Part shown: positions 537-45,348 of the stretch, piece after piece | Numbering within the stretch: the stretch's first letter is position 1 | Layout: each line of letters begins with the position of its first letter | Virus record (IMG/VR): IMGVR_UViG_3300010354_000053 | Span: 40,758-104,757 of that record | Direction: 5' to 3' (one strand) | Length of the DNA stretch: 64,000 nt | DNA from: a virus | Notes under the pieces: generated by a model | Databases searched by the model: none | What the model saw: the letters and a program-made list of their open reading frames with translations, nothing else | Told to the model about the DNA's origin: nothing | Program-made: the position numbers and the translations under genes

Positions 537-729
537 TATCCTCTTTCTGGTTCATGCGAGGTTCTTTGTATGCTTTTTCTACACCATTCACAGCAGCCAA
601 TGCAATGGCTACAGACGCAATCGAGTTTGCAACATCCACATCATTAACAAATCCTAGAATTGCTAAAATTGTGATTGTATAAAACGCAATTGCAGTCCGC
701 CTGCAACCATTAAATGGTGTTAATAACAT
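490..729 (-). CDS. Putative holin
   Basis: 79 aa, two hydrophobic segments, charged C-tail, immediately upstream of the endolysin. Confidence 0.6.
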   Translation of the reverse strand: MLLTPFNGCRRTAIAFYTITILAILGFVNDVDVANSIASVAIALAAVNGVEKAYKEPRMNQKEDIEYAGNGQKNKKTSS

Positions 730-1226
730 TACTTATATTTCTTCTTTAATAAAGAATGAGCCTTTTTAAGAGCTTCTGCACTTCCAAACCCTTGTTTTTT
801 AACTGGTTTGTCGTTTACAGATTTTTCTTCGCCCATTCTTTCAGAATAATCACCTATCACATCAGACTCTGGAATTTCTCCGGCGACGGCGCCTTCTTTT
901 GGTTTTTTTGGCAAAGCTGGATTTTTTGTTTGCTCTGCAGATTTTTCCATATCTTCTGTTTTTGCCATTGCAGTTTGTGATGACGTTTGCACCAAGGCGG
1001 GATTAGGTTCCATGCCTGGCATTGAACCGCCGGCTGGCATAGCCTGTTTTTGTAATTCTGTAGCTTTTTCCATACGTAGTTTATTAAAAACCTGAGCACG
1101 ATCTTCAGCATCAACTTTTGGGATAACTTCATTAACTTTAGCAGGGCCTTTAATTTCTTCTACCGCTTGATCAACCGACAATCCTTTGCACATTTTGTGC
1201 ATTTTTTTAAGATGTTGAACGCTCAT
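729..1226 (-). CDS. Hypothetical protein, probable head-internal protein
   Basis: Low-complexity, several MEKA/MEKS/EEKS/LKKA motifs like those in the scaffold and capsid; start moved to the ATG at 1226. Confidence 0.45.
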   Translation of the reverse strand: MSVQHLKKMHKMCKGLSVDQAVEEIKGPAKVNEVIPKVDAEDRAQVFNKLRMEKATELQKQAMPAGGSMPGMEPNPALVQTSSQTAMAKTEDMEKSAEQTKNPALPKKPKEGAVAGEIPESDVIGDYSERMGEEKSVNDKPVKKQGFGSAEALKKAHSLLKKKYK

Positions 1227-1321
1227 TTTTTTCTCCAAAAAAACCTTGACTTTTAATGAAATTAATGCCATTGTCTTATATTAGCAAATCGCTAGTATAA
1301 ATTATACACTTGGAGTCGCCT

Positions 1322-2245
1322 ATGGCAATTGATTTAAGCAAAATGACGTTTGGCGCTGAACTAGAACTTGGCGATGTTGATACAAAAATTATTCTGCCGC
1401 TAGGTAATAGATGGTGTGATAAAGATGGATCTATTTGTAATTCCAATGGAACTGCAAACGATCCGAAAAAAGTTTTTAATCGGTATGGTGGTGAGATTCA
1501 AATGAAGCCTGAAAACTCTCCGGAAGAGTTGCTTCGAGCCACTAAAGAAATCTACGACCTTCTGCCTAAAAAACACTTTAACTTTACCACTAATTTGCAT
1601 GTTCATATTCGTATTCCCGGACTTAAGGATGACTTAGAGGCCCTAAAGAAAATTGCTGCGTATCTTCGTAAATATGACGAAGAAATTTATGAACTTATAG
1701 ACCCAAATCCATTCCCAGAACGACAACTTAAATTTTCCAATCCTGACTTTTACAACGGCGCAGTCTCGAGATGGCGTCGTCGTAATAAGTCACATAGGTA
1801 TCGGGTGACAGAAAAAGTTCATAAATTAATGATGAACGCAAAATCACCACGCGAGTTCTACGAGGCTCACGCCCCTAAAAATCGTTTTGGACAACCAATG
1901 TGGCATGTTGTGGTCAGAGCCGGTGTGAATCTCAAACAAGTATTTGAAGATACTGAAACTATTGAGTTTCGGCATTTTACAATGTCACCAGATCTAAATA
2001 AGATGTTGTCGGCATATAAGTGGCCTAGGCTTCTTATGGAAGCAATTTTTGTCACGGGGCACACACCGAAGCAGATTTTAGAAAACAATCCAGACTTGGT
2101 ATTCCAAAATTTTCATCCGTATGATCACGAACTAGATAAAATCTTTAGGCAAACCAATGTTTACCATAACAAACGTTCCGAAGTGCGGGAAAACTATAAA
2201 CGTTTAATTGAGCAGGGCCTAGTTGACGAACAGACTCTTTATTGA
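1322..2245 (+). CDS. Putative amidoligase (COOH-NH2 ligase, Amidoligase_2-like)
   Basis: TFGAELE, GGEIQMKP, NLHVHI, TIEFRHF motifs; GGAG RBS at 1312. Confidence 0.8.
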   Translation: MAIDLSKMTFGAELELGDVDTKIILPLGNRWCDKDGSICNSNGTANDPKKVFNRYGGEIQMKPENSPEELLRATKEIYDLLPKKHFNFTTNLHVHIRIPGLKDDLEALKKIAAYLRKYDEEIYELIDPNPFPERQLKFSNPDFYNGAVSRWRRRNKSHRYRVTEKVHKLMMNAKSPREFYEAHAPKNRFGQPMWHVVVRAGVNLKQVFEDTETIEFRHFTMSPDLNKMLSAYKWPRLLMEAIFVTGHTPKQILENNPDLVFQNFHPYDHELDKIFRQTNVYHNKRSEVRENYKRLIEQGLVDEQTLY

Positions 2246-2252
2246 GGATTGC

Positions 2253-2705
2253 ATGAAAGTTTTATTTATTTGTACGGGTAACAAGTTTCGTAGTCCAACT
2301 GCGGAACATATTATGAAATGCCTAGCCCCGCATTTAGAAGTTAAATCGGCTGGAACAGCGGAAGGCGCTCATAAAAACTATTTAATGGCCAAAAAAATGC
2401 GTCGTTGTTTAATTGAATTAGGTTATCCTGAGCCCGCAATACGTTCTCAGCATCTGACGGCGGAATTAATGGAGTGGGCAGATATTGTTTTATATATGGC
2501 CCCTACACATTTCAACTATATGTACAAAAATCATGTCCAATTTATACATAAATGCAGGCCGCTCTACACCGTCCTGCCAGACCTTGATTTAAAACGAATT
2601 GAAGACCCTGCTTTTATTAAAAAGCATGAAGATGTTATGGAAGTAACTAAAATTATTGAAGATTCGATTAAAAAAATACTAAACGATGAAGCAAAACTAA
2701 TTTAA
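2253..2705 (+). CDS. Low-molecular-weight protein tyrosine phosphatase/ArsC-family protein
   Basis: VLFICTGNKFRSPTAE P-loop (CX5R), SAGT, WADIVLYM, IEDP. Confidence 0.88.
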   Translation: MKVLFICTGNKFRSPTAEHIMKCLAPHLEVKSAGTAEGAHKNYLMAKKMRRCLIELGYPEPAIRSQHLTAELMEWADIVLYMAPTHFNYMYKNHVQFIHKCRPLYTVLPDLDLKRIEDPAFIKKHEDVMEVTKIIEDSIKKILNDEAKLI

Positions 2706-2935
2706 ACTTCGGAATTACCGATCTTATTCTTTTGACGAGAACCTGTTGGAATAGATGTACCCGGAAGTTTAGGAGCTTCTGGCATTTTTATTTCTGAAGT
2801 TTTAACTGTAGTTTTTTTAGAAGTAGAAGATACAGAACCGTCAAGAATTTTGTACATTCTGTCTTGTACAGTTTCTGCAGGTGTGGATTTAGTCATTTTC
2901 TTGCACAGTTCGACTATTTCTAACAGTTTGTTCAA
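2702..2935 (-). CDS. Hypothetical protein
   Basis: 77-aa ORF in the minus-strand operon. Confidence 0.5.
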   Translation of the reverse strand: MNKLLEIVELCKKMTKSTPAETVQDRMYKILDGSVSSTSKKTTVKTSEIKMPEAPKLPGTSIPTGSRQKNKIGNSEV

Positions 2936-3425
2936 GTTCGGCCTCTGTTACAATCCAAGGTGGTACGCAAACCATTTTATGCTCTATTTTACCATATTGG
3001 ATATTAGATAAAAAAGGCTTCATGAGTTCTTGTTCATCTTGATGGCGATTTTCTTTAATATAACCAATGTTATCGATATTTTTATCCAGTAATTTAGACA
3101 TACAAGCCATACAAGGCTGAACACTCACAATAAATTGGTATTTATGGATATTGATTGTTTGAATCATCTTTTCCAGAAGATCTGTCTCCGCATGGCGAAT
3201 TAAGAATTTTTTAGCAGGATTTTTATCAATATTTAACTCGGCAAGAGCTTTTGAATTTTTTTCAAAAGCAGAAATTATCTTGTTAACGCCATAAGCAATA
3301 ACAGAATTTGTGGATGTATCTACAGCAATTGCGACTACCTGAACTAGAGGATCACTACTTCGTTTTTTAAGAACGTCAAATAGGATCTCGGTACTAACTA
3401 CAGGGAAGGAGCCGTAGACAAACAT
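2889..3425 (-). CDS. dCMP deaminase-like zinc-dependent deaminase
   Basis: HAE and PCxxC (RHAETD...QPCMAC) motifs; KRSSDP..QV.A N-terminal pattern. Confidence 0.8.
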   Translation of the reverse strand: MFVYGSFPVVSTEILFDVLKKRSSDPLVQVVAIAVDTSTNSVIAYGVNKIISAFEKNSKALAELNIDKNPAKKFLIRHAETDLLEKMIQTINIHKYQFIVSVQPCMACMSKLLDKNIDNIGYIKENRHQDEQELMKPFLSNIQYGKIEHKMVCVPPWIVTEAELEQTVRNSRTVQEND

Positions 3426-4036
3426 TCTTTAATTCCTTGTTGTAGTTTTTGTACTACTTGTTCGGGTGAATCTTCAAAATCTACTTTTACGAGAGTAACA
3501 GGAGCGCGACATAAATCCAAGAAATAACCTACGCACATCTTTGCCCTATCCATAAACACTTGAACATTATTGAATGTCAAGTCAGGAAGTCTTTCTTCAA
3601 CAATACCAGCATTTTTTCTTCGCAAAGAAAGACGTTCTCTAATCTTTTCTACAGTAAAATCGTAGTGTACAACAACGACTTTAATGTCTTCTTTATGGCG
3701 ATATTCATTAACCATTTCTACCCAACGAGACGTAGACATAACGCCATCGATAATAACTGTATCTGACAGCTCGAGAGCATCAAAGAAACCTGTTCTAACT
3801 AGCGATGGTGTAGTTATGGAATCTGTGCCAGAATTTTTATTACCAACCAAAACACAATTATCATATTGAACAATACTATATTTCTGCTCAATTGTAGCTC
3901 CCCTGTTGGGCATACGTTTTTTAATAAATTTACCCATTTTAGAAATTTCTTTGCCATCTCCTTGGCAAAAAGTATTTCTGGTGGTGGTTTTGCCGGTTGC
4001 ACCTGCGCCCATTAGAAAAATTGCTACTTTAGTCAT
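3398..4036 (-). CDS. P-loop nucleotide kinase, candidate 5-hmdU DNA kinase
   Basis: Walker A GAGATGKTT at the N-terminus, GTDSI motif, VIIDG Walker B, ERLSLRR lid; two genes from the amino acid:DNA transferase. Confidence 0.72.
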   Translation of the reverse strand: MTKVAIFLMGAGATGKTTTRNTFCQGDGKEISKMGKFIKKRMPNRGATIEQKYSIVQYDNCVLVGNKNSGTDSITTPSLVRTGFFDALELSDTVIIDGVMSTSRWVEMVNEYRHKEDIKVVVVHYDFTVEKIRERLSLRRKNAGIVEERLPDLTFNNVQVFMDRAKMCVGYFLDLCRAPVTLVKVDFEDSPEQVVQKLQQGIKECLSTAPSL

Positions 4037-4403
4037 GAAAGCCCTCAATATACTCTTGATTTGTTTTATGGCATTTAAAACAAATTCTGTTTCCGTTTGG
4101 TGAAAAGAAAACATTGTTGCATTTTAAACAATTTCTATTTTTTGCAATGGCAGAACCGTGTTCTGAAAAAAACTTCTCGTCCGCTTTTCGTAGTTCTTCC
4201 ATAAGCTGTTTGTGTCGCTCTTTACGTCTATTTGACGTTCGCTCTTTATTCTTTTTTATTTTTTCTGTTAAATCAATCCAGTTTAAATTATGTTGAATAA
4301 CATAATTTTGCATGAATGATTCATGATTATCAATGGATGGTACTGGAATATTGAGAGTTTTGCAAAACATTTTTAATGTAATTTTAGTTTCATTAACAAT
4401 CAT
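4029..4403 (-). CDS. Hypothetical protein with C-terminal zinc ribbon
   Basis: CLKC...ICFKC. Confidence 0.55.
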   Translation of the reverse strand: MIVNETKITLKMFCKTLNIPVPSIDNHESFMQNYVIQHNLNWIDLTEKIKKNKERTSNRRKERHKQLMEELRKADEKFFSEHGSAIAKNRNCLKCNNVFFSPNGNRICFKCHKTNQEYIEGFHD

Positions 4404-4413
4404 TACTCTGCCC

Positions 4414-4743
4414 TTATTCTAATTCAGCACCCATGTCTACGATACCTTCTTTCTGCAACAACGAAAGGGCTAACACTCGTTTAGAATCTGCAAAATTTCT
4501 TGTTTCATTGAAGGCACTGCGAAAAGTTTGCAGAACTTCTTGAGCAGCTTTAAATTCCGAATTAGCTTCCATTTCTTTCTTTGCCTTCAAAACATGCGCA
4601 TTCTGTTCTGCAATGATCTGTTTTAGTTTATCGACGTTATAAGTTTTTAGCATTTGCAATTCATCGTAAGAATAATTCTTTACAAACGCTTTTTCAATAT
4701 CACTCAGATGGCTGTACTTATTTGACTTACTCTTCTTTCTCAT
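4414..4743 (-). CDS. Hypothetical coiled-coil protein
   Basis: 109-aa helical ORF in operon. Confidence 0.55.
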   Translation of the reverse strand: MRKKSKSNKYSHLSDIEKAFVKNYSYDELQMLKTYNVDKLKQIIAEQNAHVLKAKKEMEANSEFKAAQEVLQTFRSAFNETRNFADSKRVLALSLLQKEGIVDMGAELE

Positions 4744-5603
4744 TTAACATCCTCCACAAAAAGTAATTGTTTCGTTTTAATGTATGCAGTTTTTTCTTTT
4801 ACTGAAAAATGGTGTTGTAAAAACTTATGATCAAATTCACATTCATCTATTAAATTCCAAAATACGTTATCTGAATACAATTCTGGTTTTTTAAGAACTA
4901 AAAATTCATTAATGTCATGTCCAACTACATAACTCCCCTTGTGCAGTATTTTAGGCACTTTACACAAACAGCTTTCTACTTGACCAATCGGCGCGTTCCA
5001 AATTTTTGATAAATTCCAACCCAAAGCTTCCCATTCTGGGATTATGTCTTTAGTAAATTTTTGATTAATACCATATAGGTAACGAAGTCCAAATACTGGT
5101 CCAGTATTTTTGTTAGGATCAGAGCTTTCGATTCCTAACCCATTAATACGAAAGCTTTTATATCCAAGCGTTTGATCCATGAGTTCACAAGTTTTATAGC
5201 AGGCCCAATCACCAAAATATGGAATAGTCTTGAATAACTCTCTTCCGCTGTTAAAATCTAACTGCTCTGTTTTAAGCGTTGATTCAACTGTTAACCATCT
5301 ATCAAAAGCTTTTTCAAAATTTTCAGTTCGTCGCACTTGTGGTGTTCGACCACGTTCCATTCCAAACTTACTGATTTTTTCAAACATCTGAATGGGTGTT
5401 TTACCTTCAGCAATTCCCCGCATGAATAAAACCATGCTTTCGATAGAATAGTAATATACGTACATGAAAATTGCGGTTTCGGGGTCAAATTTTTCGTGAT
5501 TAATAATTGATTTTAGAAAAGGATAAACAGGGTCAACATCTTGTGTGCGAATTAAAGCTAAGCTAGCCTTCTCGAAATCAGAAAAGTTAAATAGATGTTG
5601 CAT
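4740..5603 (-). CDS. Amino acid:DNA transferase (aGPT-Pplase2/ADDT family)
   Basis: LIRTQDVDPVY, G.ER, FGDWACYK..E, VESCLCK, GSYVVGHDI motifs recalled for this HhH-glycosylase-like family; start uncertain (5603 or 5654). Confidence 0.8.
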   Translation of the reverse strand: MQHLFNFSDFEKASLALIRTQDVDPVYPFLKSIINHEKFDPETAIFMYVYYYSIESMVLFMRGIAEGKTPIQMFEKISKFGMERGRTPQVRRTENFEKAFDRWLTVESTLKTEQLDFNSGRELFKTIPYFGDWACYKTCELMDQTLGYKSFRINGLGIESSDPNKNTGPVFGLRYLYGINQKFTKDIIPEWEALGWNLSKIWNAPIGQVESCLCKVPKILHKGSYVVGHDINEFLVLKKPELYSDNVFWNLIDECEFDHKFLQHHFSVKEKTAYIKTKQLLFVEDVK

Positions 5604-6492
5604 ATAAATACTCTTGAACGCCGTCAGCAAGTTCTTTAATGTATGTTGGAGCATGGCGTAAGCCGTTTGCAGATTTTGGAGTTACATACATACAATTACC
5701 TTCTTGAATAAACGCATGTAAATAGTCTTCCATATAAGCTGGCCTCCAGCCTGTTTTTGGCTCTCCCGTTATTTCAATACTTACCTGGCCATTGGTTACT
5801 TTAGAAATATGCTCAATAATTTTTTGAATTTTATCTTTAATTTCTAAATCTTTTTGTTCTTTTTGATAAATAAAATGAGTACCAAGATAATAGGCATCGG
5901 TAGTGGGTTTTGGATATAGATACGCATTAATAAAACGACCTTCTTTTGCATTTAAACAAAATCTTGGATAACGATCAAATACTTCTCCGCTTGGCTTGCA
6001 CTCTACCGACCATCCCCAACGATAATCGGTAGGTTTATATTTATGAAAACCATTAGCGTGAATAATAAGGCGATTTGTTGGAGTTTTATTTATGCGAGAA
6101 GAAAAGAAAAAATCTTGGGTAAACTGCACAAACGCTTGTACATTAACATGCATTGATTGTTTGTTTAAAACTTTAATATTACCTATAGTTTGCACGTACC
6201 TGAGTTCTTTAGAATTATTATGATGCGGAATGCTTTTTTGGGTATATCCGTAAGGGACAGCTTCTGAAAAAAGAATAATTGGTCTGCGGTCTGTTTGGCT
6301 GAACGATTGTAGCCAAAGGTTATAATTAATTGCATCTAGCTCTTCACCTGATGGGTAAATACACCCAGTACTTGCCTTCCATGCACCGGGTGAATCGTCG
6401 TCTTCCCACGAAAACATAATTTTTCTACTAGTAAGCTCCCAAGCAAGAAGTGAACCAATCAATCCAAAGCCTTTAATATGTACTGTAGACAT
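5587..6492 (-). CDS. FAD-dependent oxidoreductase (DAO/glycine oxidase-like), candidate flavin-dependent lyase
   Basis: N-terminal GFGLIGSLLAWEL Rossmann motif, GAWKASTG, C-terminal GWRP and NGLRHAP. Confidence 0.8.
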   Translation of the reverse strand: MSTVHIKGFGLIGSLLAWELTSRKIMFSWEDDDSPGAWKASTGCIYPSGEELDAINYNLWLQSFSQTDRRPIILFSEAVPYGYTQKSIPHHNNSKELRYVQTIGNIKVLNKQSMHVNVQAFVQFTQDFFFSSRINKTPTNRLIIHANGFHKYKPTDYRWGWSVECKPSGEVFDRYPRFCLNAKEGRFINAYLYPKPTTDAYYLGTHFIYQKEQKDLEIKDKIQKIIEHISKVTNGQVSIEITGEPKTGWRPAYMEDYLHAFIQEGNCMYVTPKSANGLRHAPTYIKELADGVQEYLYATSI

Positions 6493-39483: not shown

Positions 39484-41502
39484 TTATTTAGGCTTAGAAG
39501 CTTCTTCTAGTAATTGTTTTAAGGATTTACCCATTGATTTTTTATTTTTTGATTCTAAACTAACGGCGTGTTTTTCTTCGGCATGTTTGAGTTTTTGCTC
39601 ATGTTGCTCTTTTTTTATTTCCATCATCTGTTGATGCTTTTCTTGCATTTGTTTTAATTCTTCTTCATTCATGTTTTGTTCATTCTCAGCAAGATCTTGT
39701 TCTCCTTGCTGCTCGCCTTGCTGCTGCTGTTCAGCTTGTTGTTGTTGAGCCTGCATTTGTGATTCCATTTGATGCGCTTGTAGCTCTAGTTGTGCTGTTT
39801 GTAACTTCATTTGTTCTGCTTGCATTGCCGGGATTTTTCCCTTTTGCTTTTGATAAGCATCGTTGATGGCTGGATCGATAAAAAAATCGAGTGATTGGTT
39901 TTTTAATGCATCTTTTTCTTTAAAGAAATAATGCCTTATTTCGGACATCTTCATGTATTTAGCAACTGATTGATGAAAAATTGGAGATGTGGGGACGTCA
40001 CCTCCGAACGGGAATACATCAAGTCTTTCGCTGTCAGACCAAATTTTGCCAAATGTACCAGAAGTTTGTAATTCTTCCTTATAAATAGCTAAATCGGCTT
40101 CTTTTGTATTTTGCCCTAATCCAATAGGCTCAATTCTCAAAATATCTTTAGCTTGAGGAAATGAATCTGCTATTAGATCATTTAATAAATCAAATAATGT
40201 TTCGGTTAATTGTCGAAGCCCGCGTTCTTCGCCTTGTACAATTTGTTCTTGTTTACCTGTGTCTCCCATAGTTGGTTTAGCGGAATCTAAGGCACCAAAG
40301 CCAATTTCTTGGGGTGAAATCTGAAAAGCGCCACAAACAATCATGAGAACGCGTTGGTATAAATTATTAAATTCTAGATCTTTTGCGGTAATGTTAAGAG
40401 GAACAAACTCTACATCAATTGGGCCTGCAACAATTGGAATTGTTGCGGAATTATCATTTCTAGCAACATAGTTGCTGAAAAGTTTTCTAAAAGCTTCTGC
40501 TTGTTCTGGACTTACCACACCAGTTTCTTGGGTTTTTAAATTAATAATACCTTTGGTTGCCAAGCCTTTAGTAAATGAGTTTTGTAGATATTGTTGAGCA
40601 TAAAAATGCATTGACACTGCATAAAACGCTTTTTCAATGGGGGCCATTGGATAGCCGTCTAAGTTTTCGTGAGCCTGTTTTTGAAGATAAGTCACGATTA
40701 AATCGTCTTCAGTGAAGAATGCAACATTTTTTCCGTCAATTCTTTGAACATATGCAATCGGACGACGACCTTTTTCAATATTTTTATAATCTTTTAAATC
40801 GTCTTCAGATTGATCTGCGACGTCTTTATCATTTCCAGATAAAGTTACATCTGCTTGGTCTAAAACTCTAAAAACTGTTTCTACGGGGACTGGTCTGAAC
40901 AGAACGGGCACACCTTCTTTTGATCTAATTATTTGAGTTGCACATCTTCCATAAACTAAAAGATTTCTAGCCTGAGCCCCTAAAAATTCTGCTAAATTAC
41001 ATGTTTTAAACGTAGTATCTGAACCTTGAAACACATGATCAAGAATTGTGCGATTGGTGGTTCCACAATTCAAAATATATTTGAAAATAATATTAGAAAG
41101 TTCTGTGCGAAATTTAATTTCTTCAGCTTTTTCTGTTTCATTTATTAAATTATCAATTTGTACTGGAATAACTTCTCTTAAAACAAACCCTCTATCATAT
41201 TTATTGGCAGATTTTCTGCCAAATGCCATAGATTGATTGGCACGAGTGTCGATAATTAAAGAAATAATTGAATCATAGTAGGCTAATTCCCGCAACTCTT
41301 TATCAGACATTCGCCCCTTTTTCTCAAAGAGGCTGTTAGAACTTGCATTTCTAGATTCAAGACTAAAAACAGCTTTACTCTGTTCAATTTTATCTTTAAT
41401 CAATTCGTTATTTTCTAACGGTTTAACTGATTTGGATAAATCGTCTACGTAAAAAGAGACTTGTCCCTGTTTATCTTTTTTGAAGAAATCGAAAAGTCCC
41501 AT
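39484..41502 (-). CDS. Portal protein
   Basis: IIDTRANQ, GYPMAPIE, F..G...KGII, KDLEF, ICGAFQISPQEIGF, GLRQL motifs of SPO1/K-type portals; Gln-rich C-terminal extension. Confidence 0.85.
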   Translation of the reverse strand: MGLFDFFKKDKQGQVSFYVDDLSKSVKPLENNELIKDKIEQSKAVFSLESRNASSNSLFEKKGRMSDKELRELAYYDSIISLIIDTRANQSMAFGRKSANKYDRGFVLREVIPVQIDNLINETEKAEEIKFRTELSNIIFKYILNCGTTNRTILDHVFQGSDTTFKTCNLAEFLGAQARNLLVYGRCATQIIRSKEGVPVLFRPVPVETVFRVLDQADVTLSGNDKDVADQSEDDLKDYKNIEKGRRPIAYVQRIDGKNVAFFTEDDLIVTYLQKQAHENLDGYPMAPIEKAFYAVSMHFYAQQYLQNSFTKGLATKGIINLKTQETGVVSPEQAEAFRKLFSNYVARNDNSATIPIVAGPIDVEFVPLNITAKDLEFNNLYQRVLMIVCGAFQISPQEIGFGALDSAKPTMGDTGKQEQIVQGEERGLRQLTETLFDLLNDLIADSFPQAKDILRIEPIGLGQNTKEADLAIYKEELQTSGTFGKIWSDSERLDVFPFGGDVPTSPIFHQSVAKYMKMSEIRHYFFKEKDALKNQSLDFFIDPAINDAYQKQKGKIPAMQAEQMKLQTAQLELQAHQMESQMQAQQQQAEQQQQGEQQGEQDLAENEQNMNEEELKQMQEKHQQMMEIKKEQHEQKLKHAEEKHAVSLESKNKKSMGKSLKQLLEEASKPK

Positions 41503-42508: not shown

Positions 42509-44428
42509 CTAGAATAAAATAGTTGCACTACCCGATTTTAACATTTTTTCTGCGTCTTCTTCGTTCTTTTTCTTAATATCTATATTGTATTCAGAAGCAT
42601 AATGAATACGCAATGCTTCTTGCATGCCTTCTACTGTAGTAAAACTAGGCTTTTTAGTATAATCAAACTGATCAGCCTGCGAAGCCTGAATTACCGATGC
42701 ATTGCTGGTTATAAATGGATCGATTGCATATCGAAGAGCGTCAGGACCATGGGTGAAATCGTCATCAGCAAATCGCGAGTAATCATACCCCATTGCCCCC
42801 TTAGCGTATGTCCAGTTTTCCATGCATTTAATTAAAAACAAATTTTTGGGGTCATCTAATATGATGAAATGCGCCTGTTGTCTCATTGCGTTCCATAATT
42901 TTGAACGAATCCATGATACGCCAGTATCAATAGTTAATGGTTTTTCTCCCCTAGCAGGCATATTCATGCTCCCCGCTACAGAAGTTGAAGATTTGTCGGC
43001 TGTGTCTGGACACAGGAGGTCAAATCCGTACTTAAGATAAATGTTTTCTTTCACAAAAGCAAGCCAGTCCGGATTTGCGTAACCGGTTGAATGTTCTGTA
43101 TGGAGAACAAGCATTTTATCGTCTGATTTTTTATATGCTATCAAAATAGCTACTGCTGGGTCAATGAATCCAAAGTCAACACCACAATGCAATCGCCAGC
43201 CATTTGCTCTTAGTTCTCTAATTAATTCATCTTTTGAAATATCACGTATGTTGCCAAATCGATCTGTAGGAAAGGTACTGAAGGCAAAGTTCCAACATTC
43301 TTGGACTGTCTTTACATGAATATTACGATTGAATTTATTGAACACAATACCCGAAGACTCAGGTTTTAAGTTAAGAATCTGTGCGTTAATCTTATCTGGA
43401 TCGCCGGCATTGAGCAGAGTATTCTTAACAAAGCCTAAGTCGCGTAGCATTTTTGATTTAGATTGTTGTTTAACTGATTTTGTTCGACAAATAGAAAATA
43501 CAGGACATGTTTTGCAGCCTTCATATGCCAATATAGATGAATATACAGCCTTAGATTCCGGATTAAGAGCATTAAATGCATTATTTGGCAATACTTCTAG
43601 CGTCTCGGGATGGACATGGAGCATACTTTGCGGTAAATCGGGCTTATGGCGCTCGGGTGGACATGTTTGCATCCAATCTACAATAGACCATTTGTGTAGT
43701 CTGATGCCTGAATTTGGCATATCTGCTTCGTCAATTTTTTGCTGGATTGGTCCAGAACCAGATTTTCTGGACGACAAGTAAATAAAGATTGGCGGTTTAC
43801 CAGAGCGGTCAGGGTCAGCAATGAAAGTTGCCTCAGAAAGAATATCTTTATCAATGAGGTCTAGCTCATCGAAAATGAGGCATGATGCACGTTGGGCGTT
43901 TGCAGACTTTTTAGTTGATACAACGACTTGTAGTTTGCTATATCCAACGGGACGATGAGGTGATGGTGGTAATCTATTAAGCTCTTTTATTCGTTTACTA
44001 TCAGTTTTTGCGAAATTAGAAATAATCGGCAAAGCGAGGTGCTTGTCCAAATAACGAATTGCGGCCAAAGATTGGTCTAAAATTGCTGCCATGTGGACTA
44101 TATCTCTGGCAAAATGAACCATAAGTAAGAATTCAATAATAGAAGATGCTAATGTTTTTGCTGAGTTACGGCTTGCAGCTACAACGAACGTTGTTCTGTT
44201 GGGATCGCCGTCTTTAGCGGCAGAATAAACGTCCCAGATAAAATCCATTGGATTAGAATTACTATTATCATCTACGGTGCAGTCCGGTAAATCAATATCT
44301 AAAAATGTCTTAATCCACTGCTTAAGCTGAGCTTTACTTTCACAAACAGCAAAAAATTGCTCTTCATACAGCTGATTTAACGCTGCATTAAGCTGATTTT
44401 CATTTGTTAATTGCTGTTTTTTATTCAT
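42509..44428 (-). CDS. Terminase large subunit
   Basis: AASRNSAKT Walker A variant, LIFDELD Walker B, GVDFGFIDP nuclease motif, HGPDALRY. Confidence 0.88.
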   Translation of the reverse strand: MNKKQQLTNENQLNAALNQLYEEQFFAVCESKAQLKQWIKTFLDIDLPDCTVDDNSNSNPMDFIWDVYSAAKDGDPNRTTFVVAASRNSAKTLASSIIEFLLMVHFARDIVHMAAILDQSLAAIRYLDKHLALPIISNFAKTDSKRIKELNRLPPSPHRPVGYSKLQVVVSTKKSANAQRASCLIFDELDLIDKDILSEATFIADPDRSGKPPIFIYLSSRKSGSGPIQQKIDEADMPNSGIRLHKWSIVDWMQTCPPERHKPDLPQSMLHVHPETLEVLPNNAFNALNPESKAVYSSILAYEGCKTCPVFSICRTKSVKQQSKSKMLRDLGFVKNTLLNAGDPDKINAQILNLKPESSGIVFNKFNRNIHVKTVQECWNFAFSTFPTDRFGNIRDISKDELIRELRANGWRLHCGVDFGFIDPAVAILIAYKKSDDKMLVLHTEHSTGYANPDWLAFVKENIYLKYGFDLLCPDTADKSSTSVAGSMNMPARGEKPLTIDTGVSWIRSKLWNAMRQQAHFIILDDPKNLFLIKCMENWTYAKGAMGYDYSRFADDDFTHGPDALRYAIDPFITSNASVIQASQADQFDYTKKPSFTTVEGMQEALRIHYASEYNIDIKKKNEEDAEKMLKSGSATILF

Positions 44429-45348
44429 AGCCCATAATACTTGCGGTTTCTTCCTTTTCCTTCAAGGAGACTGCAATATTTTCTAAACTCGCAAGCAATT
44501 CCTTCAATATTACAAGTTGTGATTAGTATTTTTTTATCATCCTTAGCTAAATAAGGAAAACTATCAACTGGTTGGTGTTTCATCAGAGTGAAGGCAACGT
44601 CTTCAGGTTTAGCTTTAGGATTGAGTATCTTACAAGTAGGGGCTGCTCCGCGACCCATTTCTAAATATTTAAACTCATCAATATATTCGGGAAATTGATA
44701 ACCAAAATCCATCATAATTTCTGTCATATGGAATGGATTTTTAAACCCTAGAATACTATGAATGCTATTTGTAAGATACTGTATGCTGTGTTTTTTGTTT
44801 GACATCAACAAATCATAAATAGGATGAACAAGTTCTGGTAATTTTTCATACAAAAATTCTTCGCGATTTTTAGCCCCAATAATTGACAATCCTGCTTGCG
44901 GAAACAAATAGGCTGTATTAAATTTAGGACCTTCTATTGAAGAAAACCTAGTTCTGGATTCTAAATTTTCAGATTTATCTAGGGAAATATTACCAGTAAT
45001 TTGAAGAGTGCTAGGCATATTAATATATCTAGCAAACATTATATTAAGTAATGCTAGTTTTTTATCGTGAAGGCACGGTTGTAGCCACTCGTGAATCCAC
45101 AATGAAACCTTATCAAGTTCTCTATAACAATTAGTGAAATAATTTCTGTTTAAAATTACATCTTCAGTCCATGGTCTAGGTTGTCCACTATCCTTAAGAT
45201 GAAAGATTTTCATTCTTTCGATTGCAAAATCCCAGTACCTTTGCTCAATCGCTGAATCTATTGCAACTTCTCGACCGTTCATCCATCCAAATTCTTGGTA
45301 TTGGTCAAAATGTTTATATAAATTTAAAGCTTTAGCTTTTGCACTCAT
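44425..45348 (-). CDS. aGPT-Pplase1 / 5-hmdU DNA kinase helical-domain family protein
   Basis: YWDFAIERMKIF...G.PRPWTEDVIL...FTNCYRELDKVS, FARYIN, GRGA, IEGIACEFRKY motifs. Confidence 0.85.
   Translation of the reverse strand: MSAKAKALNLYKHFDQYQEFGWMNGREVAIDSAIEQRYWDFAIERMKIFHLKDSGQPRPWTEDVILNRNYFTNCYRELDKVSLWIHEWLQPCLHDKKLALLNIMFARYINMPSTLQITGNISLDKSENLESRTRFSSIEGPKFNTAYLFPQAGLSIIGAKNREEFLYEKLPELVHPIYDLLMSNKKHSIQYLTNSIHSILGFKNPFHMTEIMMDFGYQFPEYIDEFKYLEMGRGAAPTCKILNPKAKPEDVAFTLMKHQPVDSFPYLAKDDKKILITTCNIEGIACEFRKYCSLLEGKGRNRKYYGL

Follow-up and report, generated by a model that had tools for sequence, protein, structure and literature searches.

What reaction would an ATP-dependent ligase and a phosphatase carry out beside the genes of a phage DNA hypermodification pathway? 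The question is raised by two adjacent genes, one for a predicted amidoligase and one for a protein of the low-molecular-weight protein tyrosine phosphatase (LMW-PTP) type, in a 64,000-nt stretch of phage DNA (hereafter the window) that corresponds to positions 40,758 to 104,757 of the IMG/VR record IMGVR_UViG_3300010354_000053 (104.7 kb, 64% complete). When 12 kb from the window was compared with deposited phage records by megablast, no match and no close relative was found. Through hypermodified thymines, phage DNA is protected against nucleases, those of restriction included, and the enzymes that make such bases are tools for DNA chemistry; the characterised tailoring reactions are few and comprise decarboxylation, radical isomerisation, flavin-dependent lyase cleavage and acetylation. 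Judged by homologs and their neighbourhoods, the pair is best read as a conserved tailoring module specific to viruses. The phage probably contains an undescribed amide-bearing base in its DNA, because the ligase and phosphatase genes stand where a known phage has an acetyltransferase. If so, an ATP-driven ligase with a dedicated phosphatase would be a new and widespread reaction type, in which a chosen acid is attached to bases of DNA, and it would yield one or more new natural DNA bases.

The gene pair takes the place of an acetyltransferase

In Pseudomonas phage PaMx11, as shown by Lee et al. (2021, PMC8989533), a glycine:DNA transferase (gp46) installs glycine, a flavin-dependent lyase (gp47) cleaves the adduct to 5-aminomethyl-deoxyuridine (5-aminomethyl-dU, 5-NmdU) and an acetyltransferase (gp48) acetylates the amine to give 5-acetylaminomethyl-dU, with gp49 being the 5-hydroxymethyl-deoxyuridine (5-hmdU) DNA kinase. 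One class of clusters around relatives of the window's pair (type II, described below) contains orthologs of PaMx11 gp45-gp47 and gp49-gp53 in the same order (30-52% identity), including a DAO-type flavoenzyme that is 46% identical to gp47 (E 4e-65). The sole missing gene is that for gp48, of which no homolog was found in the loci syntenic with gp45-gp53; the slot between the gp47 and gp49 orthologs is filled by the ligase and phosphatase genes. It is this replacement that most strongly suggests a terminal step in which the ligase acts on the unmasked amine. The original prediction, made from the letters of the window, had proposed that the ligase could acylate 5-aminomethyl-dU, for example with glutamate, where PaMx11-like pathways acetylate it, and that the phosphatase could remove unreacted phosphorylated hydroxymethyl-uracil (phospho-hmU); the shared slot lends support to acylation as such, and the role of the phosphatase is weighed below.

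The replacement is also seen in an isolated sewage phage, Simon (L005, PQ683277), whose unannotated PaMx11-like cluster lies at about 9.0-19.0 kb and is complete with transferase, FAD lyase, kinase and hydroxymethylase genes, the ligase and phosphatase standing instead of the acetyltransferase. An impression from BLASTP that Simon is devoid of the phosphatase was wrong, as a hidden Markov model (HMM) recovers the gene at L005:10872-11393 (E 7e-31). With the gp48 cassette swap and a full cluster in one isolated phage, the reaction is directly testable in a ready experimental system.

The window itself resembles PaMx11 in having a transferase, a flavoenzyme of D-amino-acid oxidase (DAAO) fold and a candidate kinase, and loci related to it share the same enzyme core, often in the same gene order. 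It differs in that the GNAT-type gp48 is absent, with a predicted ATP-dependent ligase of glutamine synthetase (GS) fold and an LMW-PTP-type phosphatase standing instead, in that this pair lies on the opposite strand and converges on the cluster, and in that the hydroxymethylase of the window's lineage is of the cytosine type.

Sequence and predicted structure of the ligase and the phosphatase

The two genes share the plus strand (Table 1), and each ATG is preceded at 6-7 nt by a Shine-Dalgarno-like GGAG or GAGG. As originally read, they form a two-gene unit facing the modification cluster, converging on minus-strand genes that start at 2702 and 2889. The terminator-like hairpin downstream of the phosphatase gene falls within a conserved minus-strand open reading frame of 64 aa.

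An amidoligase with ExE, HxH and EFR motifs had been recognised in the first of the two genes, and an alignment of 32 homologs (30-87% identity) together with a structural model confirmed this assignment. The motifs, here E13-L14-E15, H93-V94-H95 and E215-F216-R217, are invariant as ExE, HxH and EFR in all 32 sequences, and the complete invariant set consists of G11, E13, E15, D35, D47, E58, N87, H93, H95, S157, R199, N203, E215, F216 and R217. Within this set, E13, E15, E58, H93, H95, R199, E215 and R217 reproduce the metal/ATP-binding residue pattern (ExE, E, HxH, R, ExR), and by analogy with known structures of GS and glutamate-cysteine ligase (GCL) these acidic, His and Arg residues would serve as metal and ATP ligands. 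The alignment also contains a conserved basic stretch with the consensus KRxxRRKxSH.

The AlphaFold2 (AF2) model of the ligase (pLDDT 95.9) predicts the catalytic fold of GS and GCL. All 19 best structure matches by VIA are GS, GCL, YbdK, PafA or Dop proteins (Z 10.2-5.4), with Z scores of 10.2 to 1tt4 (YbdK-like), 9.5 to 2gwc (plant glutamate-cysteine ligase) and ~8.5 to GS and PafA; arginine kinases trail at Z ~4. Foldseek ranked GshF, GCL and YbdK highest, and no relative at the sequence level was found in the PDB. Against Pfam Amidoligase_2 (PF12224) the window ligase scores 20 bits, just under the cut-off of 22, and the family is carried by ~20 of at least 84 database homologs; the ligases of L045 (23.6 bits) and L212 (43.3 bits) pass the cut-off as well. 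The protein thus has the fold and the acidic/His/Arg residue pattern in common with the GS superfamily (YbdK/GCS2, GCL, GS, PafA/Dop), of which it is a minimal 300-aa version. It departs from the Amidoligase_2 family in its context, which consists of a phosphatase and DNA-modification enzymes and not of a GAT-like peptidase or an AIG2 cyclotransferase.

The second protein matches Pfam LMWPc (PF01451) with 56.6 bits (E 4e-15, cut-off 23.2) and resembles the LMW-PTPs Wzb, YwlE and ACP1 in its N-terminal CX5R(S) P-loop (C7-T-G-N-K-F-R13-S14), DP acid loop (E-D118-P119-A-F), length and family profile. Among 27 aligned phosphatase partners, C7, G9, R13, S14 and D118 never vary, and P119 hardly does. 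The second Cys of the P-loop (CxGNxCRS), which is typical and not catalytic, had been noticed to be replaced, and this holds: the position is Phe12 in the window (CTGNKFRS) and Asn in most partners. The family consensus, C[HT]GN[IV]NRS, indicates that the second Cys was lost across the whole family. Further differences from other LMW-PTPs are two extra conserved basic residues (K48 and R50) and a distribution that is essentially limited to viral hypermodification clusters beside the ligase (80 loci scanned). A role as an ArsC-type arsenate reductase was also considered and ruled out by the lack of a further conserved Cys, the presence of the DP loop and the better fit to PTP-type profiles. The family profile matches solved LMW-PTP, Wzb and YwlE structures at 1e-24 to 1e-17, and reaches ArsC at only 1e-9 with the N-terminal half alone aligned. 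Given the invariant active-site residues and a profile that fits these phosphatases much better than it fits ArsC, the protein is predicted to be a competent hydrolase, not a reductase.

The phosphatase is tied to the ligase

A pattern scan of IMG/VR built on the ligase alignment returned 331 viral stretches that encode ligase relatives, so the ligase-phosphatase feature of the window is not due to chance. Neighbourhoods were read in the best 80, and in 75 of these a phosphatase homolog adjoins the ligase. The phosphatase gene usually lies directly 3' of the ligase gene with a 4-nt overlap; it is sometimes convergent, once upstream and once fused, the fusion being a single 559-aa frame (L045:9665-11344) in which Pfam recognises both Amidoligase_2 and LMWPc. 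Another fusion joins the phosphatase to a P-loop kinase in one frame (L098:3211-4260). The reverse scan, led by the phosphatase alignment and read in 80 loci, placed the ligase next to the phosphatase in 78 cases, with one exception at a contig edge and one that is seemingly genuine. At a single locus (L112:6001-6459) the phosphatase subfamily was seen with hypermodification kinases and no ligase within 6 kb.

A third scan, started from a distant ligase, widened the sample of loci. After removal of duplicates, the pooled set comprised 95 distinct ligases, each flanked by at least 1.5 kb on both sides, and 77 of them have the phosphatase. In a quick maximum-likelihood tree, ligases without it form about five coherent clades, which are accompanied by radical-SAM/SPASM enzymes, glutathione-synthetase-like ATP-grasp enzymes or PALP-type pyridoxal phosphate enzymes (L200:8848-10044, L194:8843-10009, L201:4542-5528, L182:6350-7177 and L192:7135-7995). 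These alternative partners point to further undescribed base chemistries. A search for a substitute phosphatase in the ligase loci that lack LMWPc found none.

The phosphatase is thus hardly ever found away from the ligase, which for its part can occur alone, and for this reason the role of the phosphatase seems to depend on that of the ligase. Its distribution favours a substrate phosphate that comes from a co-substrate of the ligase, or one on the DNA that would hinder the ligase in particular. The ligase family is essentially viral. One genome from each of 185,579 prokaryotic species gave five matches, all of them on contigs of metagenome-assembled genomes, which leaves no cellular context to learn from.

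Hypermodification genes surround the pair

Neighbouring genes were identified by de novo clustering, Pfam and HMMs. A first BLASTP comparison of the window's neighbours had suggested no link to transferases or kinases beyond near relatives; this was an artefact of sensitivity and was overturned by the three other methods. Among the 95 pooled ligase loci, an amino-acid:DNA transferase (AADT) is found in at least 87, a lower bound, and a 5-hmdU-type kinase in 81, so that the survey of co-occurrence with ADDT loci, which the original prediction had put forward as a test, comes out strongly in its favour; at least 88 loci have one or the other nearby. The Pfam families represented are Tet_JBP, GATase_6/7, ADDT, dNK-like kinase, HMUDK_hel, HMUDK_HMUD1, Thymidylat_synt and DAO. 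A class-II glutamine amidotransferase (GATase) is present in 53 loci and a DAO-type flavin adenine dinucleotide (FAD) enzyme in 24, and no locus has both.

Two arrangements recur. Type I clusters open with a TET/JBP dioxygenase, a class-II GATase and an optional glycosyltransferase, followed by the ligase and phosphatase; the amino-acid:DNA transferase (PF18724) comes next, and after it a P-loop kinase of small size. Type II clusters run from the transferase and a DAO-type FAD oxidoreductase through the ligase and phosphatase to the 5-hmdU DNA kinase (P-loop and helical-domain proteins), a thymidylate-synthase-like hydroxymethylase and then a DNA polymerase. Where the gene order is different (L012, L065, L075 and L098), the GATase overlaps and stays with the transferase, and the ligase and phosphatase stay paired. 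The GATase always accompanies one transferase subfamily; with its absence from all FAD-lyase loci, this suggests a second possible route to 5-aminomethyl-dU, in which the GATase would supply the transferase with ammonia.

That amidoligases occur in such clusters is not new. Lee et al. (2021, PMC8989533) noted that metaviromes combine 5-HMUDK, aGPT-Pplase2 and TET/JBP genes with genes that Pfam assigns to amidoligases and glutamine amidotransferases and whose function is unknown, and O'Toole et al. (2025/2026, bioRxiv 10.1101/2025.08.14.668559, PMC13229309) described GATases, kinases and AADTs around T-dioxygenases. The claim that the pair represents chemistry not recognised from characterised pathways stands, while the association itself had already been reported. 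Not mentioned in the literature searched are the LMW phosphatase, its obligate pairing with the ligase, the fusions and the replacement of gp48. Most relatives of the pair sit in the metavirome clusters of TET/JBP, GATase, P-loop kinase and AADT; the window's own record differs from these in having neither TET nor GATase.

A candidate N-acylation of the aminomethyl base

We see an even chance that the module is a post-replicative step of thymidine hypermodification in which the ligase N-acylates the unmasked aminomethyl base, with a phosphatase partner that depends on the ligase. In such a pathway, the 5-hydroxymethyl pyrimidine would be supplied by a TET/JBP dioxygenase or a thymidylate-synthase-like hydroxymethylase, and the 5-hmdU DNA kinase and then the amino-acid:DNA transferase encoded beside the pair would act on it. 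A PaMx11-gp47-type FAD lyase would convert glycinyl-thymidine to 5-aminomethyl-dU, other clusters using a class-II GATase instead, and by either route the base would come to bear a free primary amine. With ATP, the GS-fold ligase would turn a carboxylic acid into its acyl phosphate and couple it to this amine, giving a base of the 5-(acylaminomethyl)-dU type; the equivalent step in PaMx11 uses acetyl-CoA and gp48. More speculatively, the phosphatase might, once ligation is complete, strip a phosphate that came with the acyl donor, or it might clear DNA-borne phosphomethyl-uracil that mimics the acyl-phosphate intermediate of the ligase.

A primary amine as the shared acceptor would fit three observations. 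The GATase and the FAD lyase are mutually exclusive; the clade of the window ligase (100% SH-aLRT, a likelihood-ratio branch test) spans loci with GATase, FAD-lyase (DAO) and radical-SAM contexts; and a distant ligase homolog of a Vibrio phage adjoins a QueF-like gene and an amidotransferase homolog. The latter locus, in the Vibrio jumbo phage 2.275.O (L004, MG592671 332034-336294), encodes a ligase homolog of 27% identity next to genes for YhhQ, a QueF-like reductase, a QueC-like protein and GTP cyclohydrolase I, as well as a homolog of the cluster amidotransferase (HMM E 6e-43). Neither a kinase nor an LMW phosphatase is present there. The product of QueF, preQ1, bears an aminomethyl group, and the L004 ligase homolog could acylate aminomethyl-deazaguanine.

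Several points weigh against N-acylation of a thymidine-derived amine with a ligase-dependent phosphatase. About 19% of the pooled ligase loci have no phosphatase, and a few ligase loci (L154, L158, L192, L207-209, L212) have no hypermodification genes within 8 kb. Because L052 and L045 contain neither DAO nor GATase, the acceptor there may be the intact appended amino acid. The donor acid is not readable from the sequence. Ligase chemistry alone does not explain the phosphatase, because a GS-type reaction leaves its product free of phosphate, and the LMWPc-kinase fusion of L098 points to the phospho-hmU step instead. In the window, the P-loop kinase is only weakly matched (E 2e-4) by an HMM built from the HMUDK P-loop proteins of related clusters. 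Nor is the modified base certain, because the hydroxymethylase is missing from the record and is of cytosine type in close relatives: no thymidylate-synthase-like hydroxymethylase was found in the 64%-complete record, while close relatives (L083:1291-2025 in G001; L084), one of them 100% complete, have such a gene. The ThyA-like enzyme of these relatives has Asp at the position of thymidylate synthase Asn177 (VPYDIEF), which we take to be the signature of dCMP hydroxymethylases; type II PaMx11-like clusters keep Asn. The window's lineage may therefore reach hydroxymethyl-uracil through hydroxymethyl-cytosine (hm-dCMP to hm-dUMP) with the help of the cluster deaminase, or it may modify a cytosine-derived base instead.

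Among the alternatives, an amidation of the DNA fares best and is nonetheless unlikely. Here, the ligase would activate a carboxylate that is already on the DNA (glycinyl- or glutamyl-thymidine) and amidate it, using GATase-derived ammonia or another amine, in the manner of a split asparagine synthetase, and the phosphatase would hydrolyse a stalled DNA-borne acyl phosphate or phospho-hmU. Many TET-type loci do have the GATase gene immediately upstream of the ligase gene, Amidoligase_2 with an Ntn-type amidohydrolase is the classical neighbourhood in the Pfam family description, and the clusters without DAO or GATase (L052, L045) would leave the appended amino acid intact. However, in the rearranged clusters (L012, L065, L075, L098) the GATase travels and overlaps with the transferase and not with the ligase, a single ligase clade serves GATase, DAO and radical-SAM contexts, and DAO-type clusters would retain no DNA-borne carboxylate because the gp47 ortholog removes the carboxymethyl arm.

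It is quite unlikely that the phosphatase has a general proofreading role, in which it would convert unreacted 5-phosphomethyl-dU back to 5-hmdU independently of the ligase, which is close to the role given to it in the original prediction. Such a function would suit the intact LMW-PTP active site, in which an aromatic residue follows DP and could accommodate a heteroaryl-methyl phosphate, and the usual position of the gene between the ligase and the transferase or kinase; the L098 fusion keeps a DNA-borne phosphate possible as the substrate, and the distant ligase homolog in the kinase-less 7-deazaguanine cluster is likewise without a phosphatase. A clean-up enzyme should not need the ligase, yet the subfamily sits beside it in 78 of 80 loci, and about one-fifth of the ligase loci do without the phosphatase. 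It is also absent from the characterised kinase/transferase phages: tblastn against 50,697 phage records turned up no member in such a cluster, and PaMx11 has none. Generic removal of phospho-hmU is therefore not well supported.

A pair that acts off the DNA is doubtful to a still greater degree. The two enzymes would ligate and then dephosphorylate a phosphorylated precursor, and the resulting small-molecule nucleophile would be installed on phospho-hmU by the transferase. Synthase-phosphatase pairing is common metabolic logic and would account for the dependence of the phosphatase on the ligase, and neither protein has a recognisable DNA-binding domain. Yet the pair fills the slot of a terminal acetyltransferase that acts on DNA, the DAO lyase step after the transferase would cleave such an adduct, and the basic stretch of the ligase is unusual for GS-type ligases of small molecules. 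A module unrelated to DNA, either for host takeover or for modifying cell wall or protein, with a phosphotyrosine or phosphoarginine phosphatase, is highly improbable. In its favour are the usual activity of LMW-PTPs on proteins, the reading of other phage amidoligase modules as peptidoglycan-modifying (PMC11945000) and the few ligase loci without hypermodification genes within 8 kb. Against it, a transferase or kinase is encoded near the ligase in at least 88 of 95 loci, the genes overlap within operons and the pair replaces a specific cassette in synteny with PaMx11.

Returning to N-acylation of the aminomethyl base, we tentatively propose, at somewhat below even chance, that the ligase is the first GS-type amide ligase to act on a nucleobase in DNA and the phosphatase the first LMW-PTP to act on a DNA-borne or base-appended phosphate. 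The products would be a family of 5-(acylaminomethyl)-uracil bases, as yet undescribed, in hundreds of environmental phages and in Simon, and an amino or hydroxy acid that arrives phosphorylated could provide the acyl group.

The cluster of the window

For several of the genes on which the pair converges (Table 1), the assignment depends on relatives, profile comparisons and structural models. The transferase itself scores below threshold in Pfam (E 0.054), whereas its BLAST relatives in L049 and L051 match PF18724 at 1e-24 and 3e-22, and profile-profile comparison (hhalign) with the cluster ADDTs gives 96.5% probability (E 1e-9). The flavoenzyme is barely detected by Pfam. Its AF2 model (pLDDT 89.6) matches DAAO and glycine oxidase in Foldseek (E 5e-12, TM ~0.7), and its family profile aligns over the full length with the PaMx11-gp47-type group (hhalign, 93.4%, E 2.4e-7). 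From these comparisons, the window is predicted to carry the clade-2 transferase and the gp47-type FAD lyase of the 5-NmdU pathway. No GNAT (Acetyltransf_1), GATase or TET homolog was found in the 104.7-kb record.

Table 1 Gene pair, converging cluster and other features of the window (positions as in the window)
Feature	Positions	Strand	Length	Remarks
Amidoligase (GS/GCL-fold ATP-dependent carboxylate-amine ligase, predicted)	1322..2245	+	307 aa	Alignment, AF2 fold
LMW-PTP-type phosphatase	2253..2705	+	150 aa	P-loop CTGNKFRS, acid loop EDPAF; Pfam LMWPc
Terminator-like hairpin with T-run	2761..2782	+		56 nt 3' of phosphatase stop; consensus match only
dCMP/cytidine deaminase-like, first gene of converging operon	2889..3425	-	178 aa	Pfam dCMP_cyt_deam_1 E 3.5e-7; conserved in L001-L003
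P-loop kinase, candidate 5-hmdU DNA kinase	3398..4036	-	212 aa	Weak HMM match; start set from relatives
Conserved small protein	4029..4403	-	124 aa	63-85% identical in L001-L003; no family match
Conserved small protein	4414..4743	-	109 aa	91-96% identical in L001-L003; no significant family match
Divergent amino-acid:DNA transferase (AADT/ADDT, aGPT-Pplase clade 2 type)	4740..5603	-	287 aa	Relatives and profile-profile comparison
FAD amine oxidase, D-amino-acid/glycine oxidase fold, candidate glycinyl-thymine lyase	5587..6492	-	301 aa	AF2 and hhalign
5-hmdU DNA kinase helical-domain protein	44425..45348	-	307 aa	HMUDK_hel PF18723 E 1.8e-21; cluster HMM E 9e-25

The helical-domain protein lies 40 kb from the P-loop kinase, beside the portal gene and large genes of unknown function; in related clusters the two form an adjacent pair. 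Upstream of the ligase, a 180-aa protein (729-1271, minus strand) matches the first 92 and the last 73 residues of a 568-aa protein (L001:8200-9906) encoded on a contig that is 96% related to the window. The ~400 residues that set the two proteins apart, inserted in L001 or deleted in the window, could reflect an intein, a domain insertion or a deletion.

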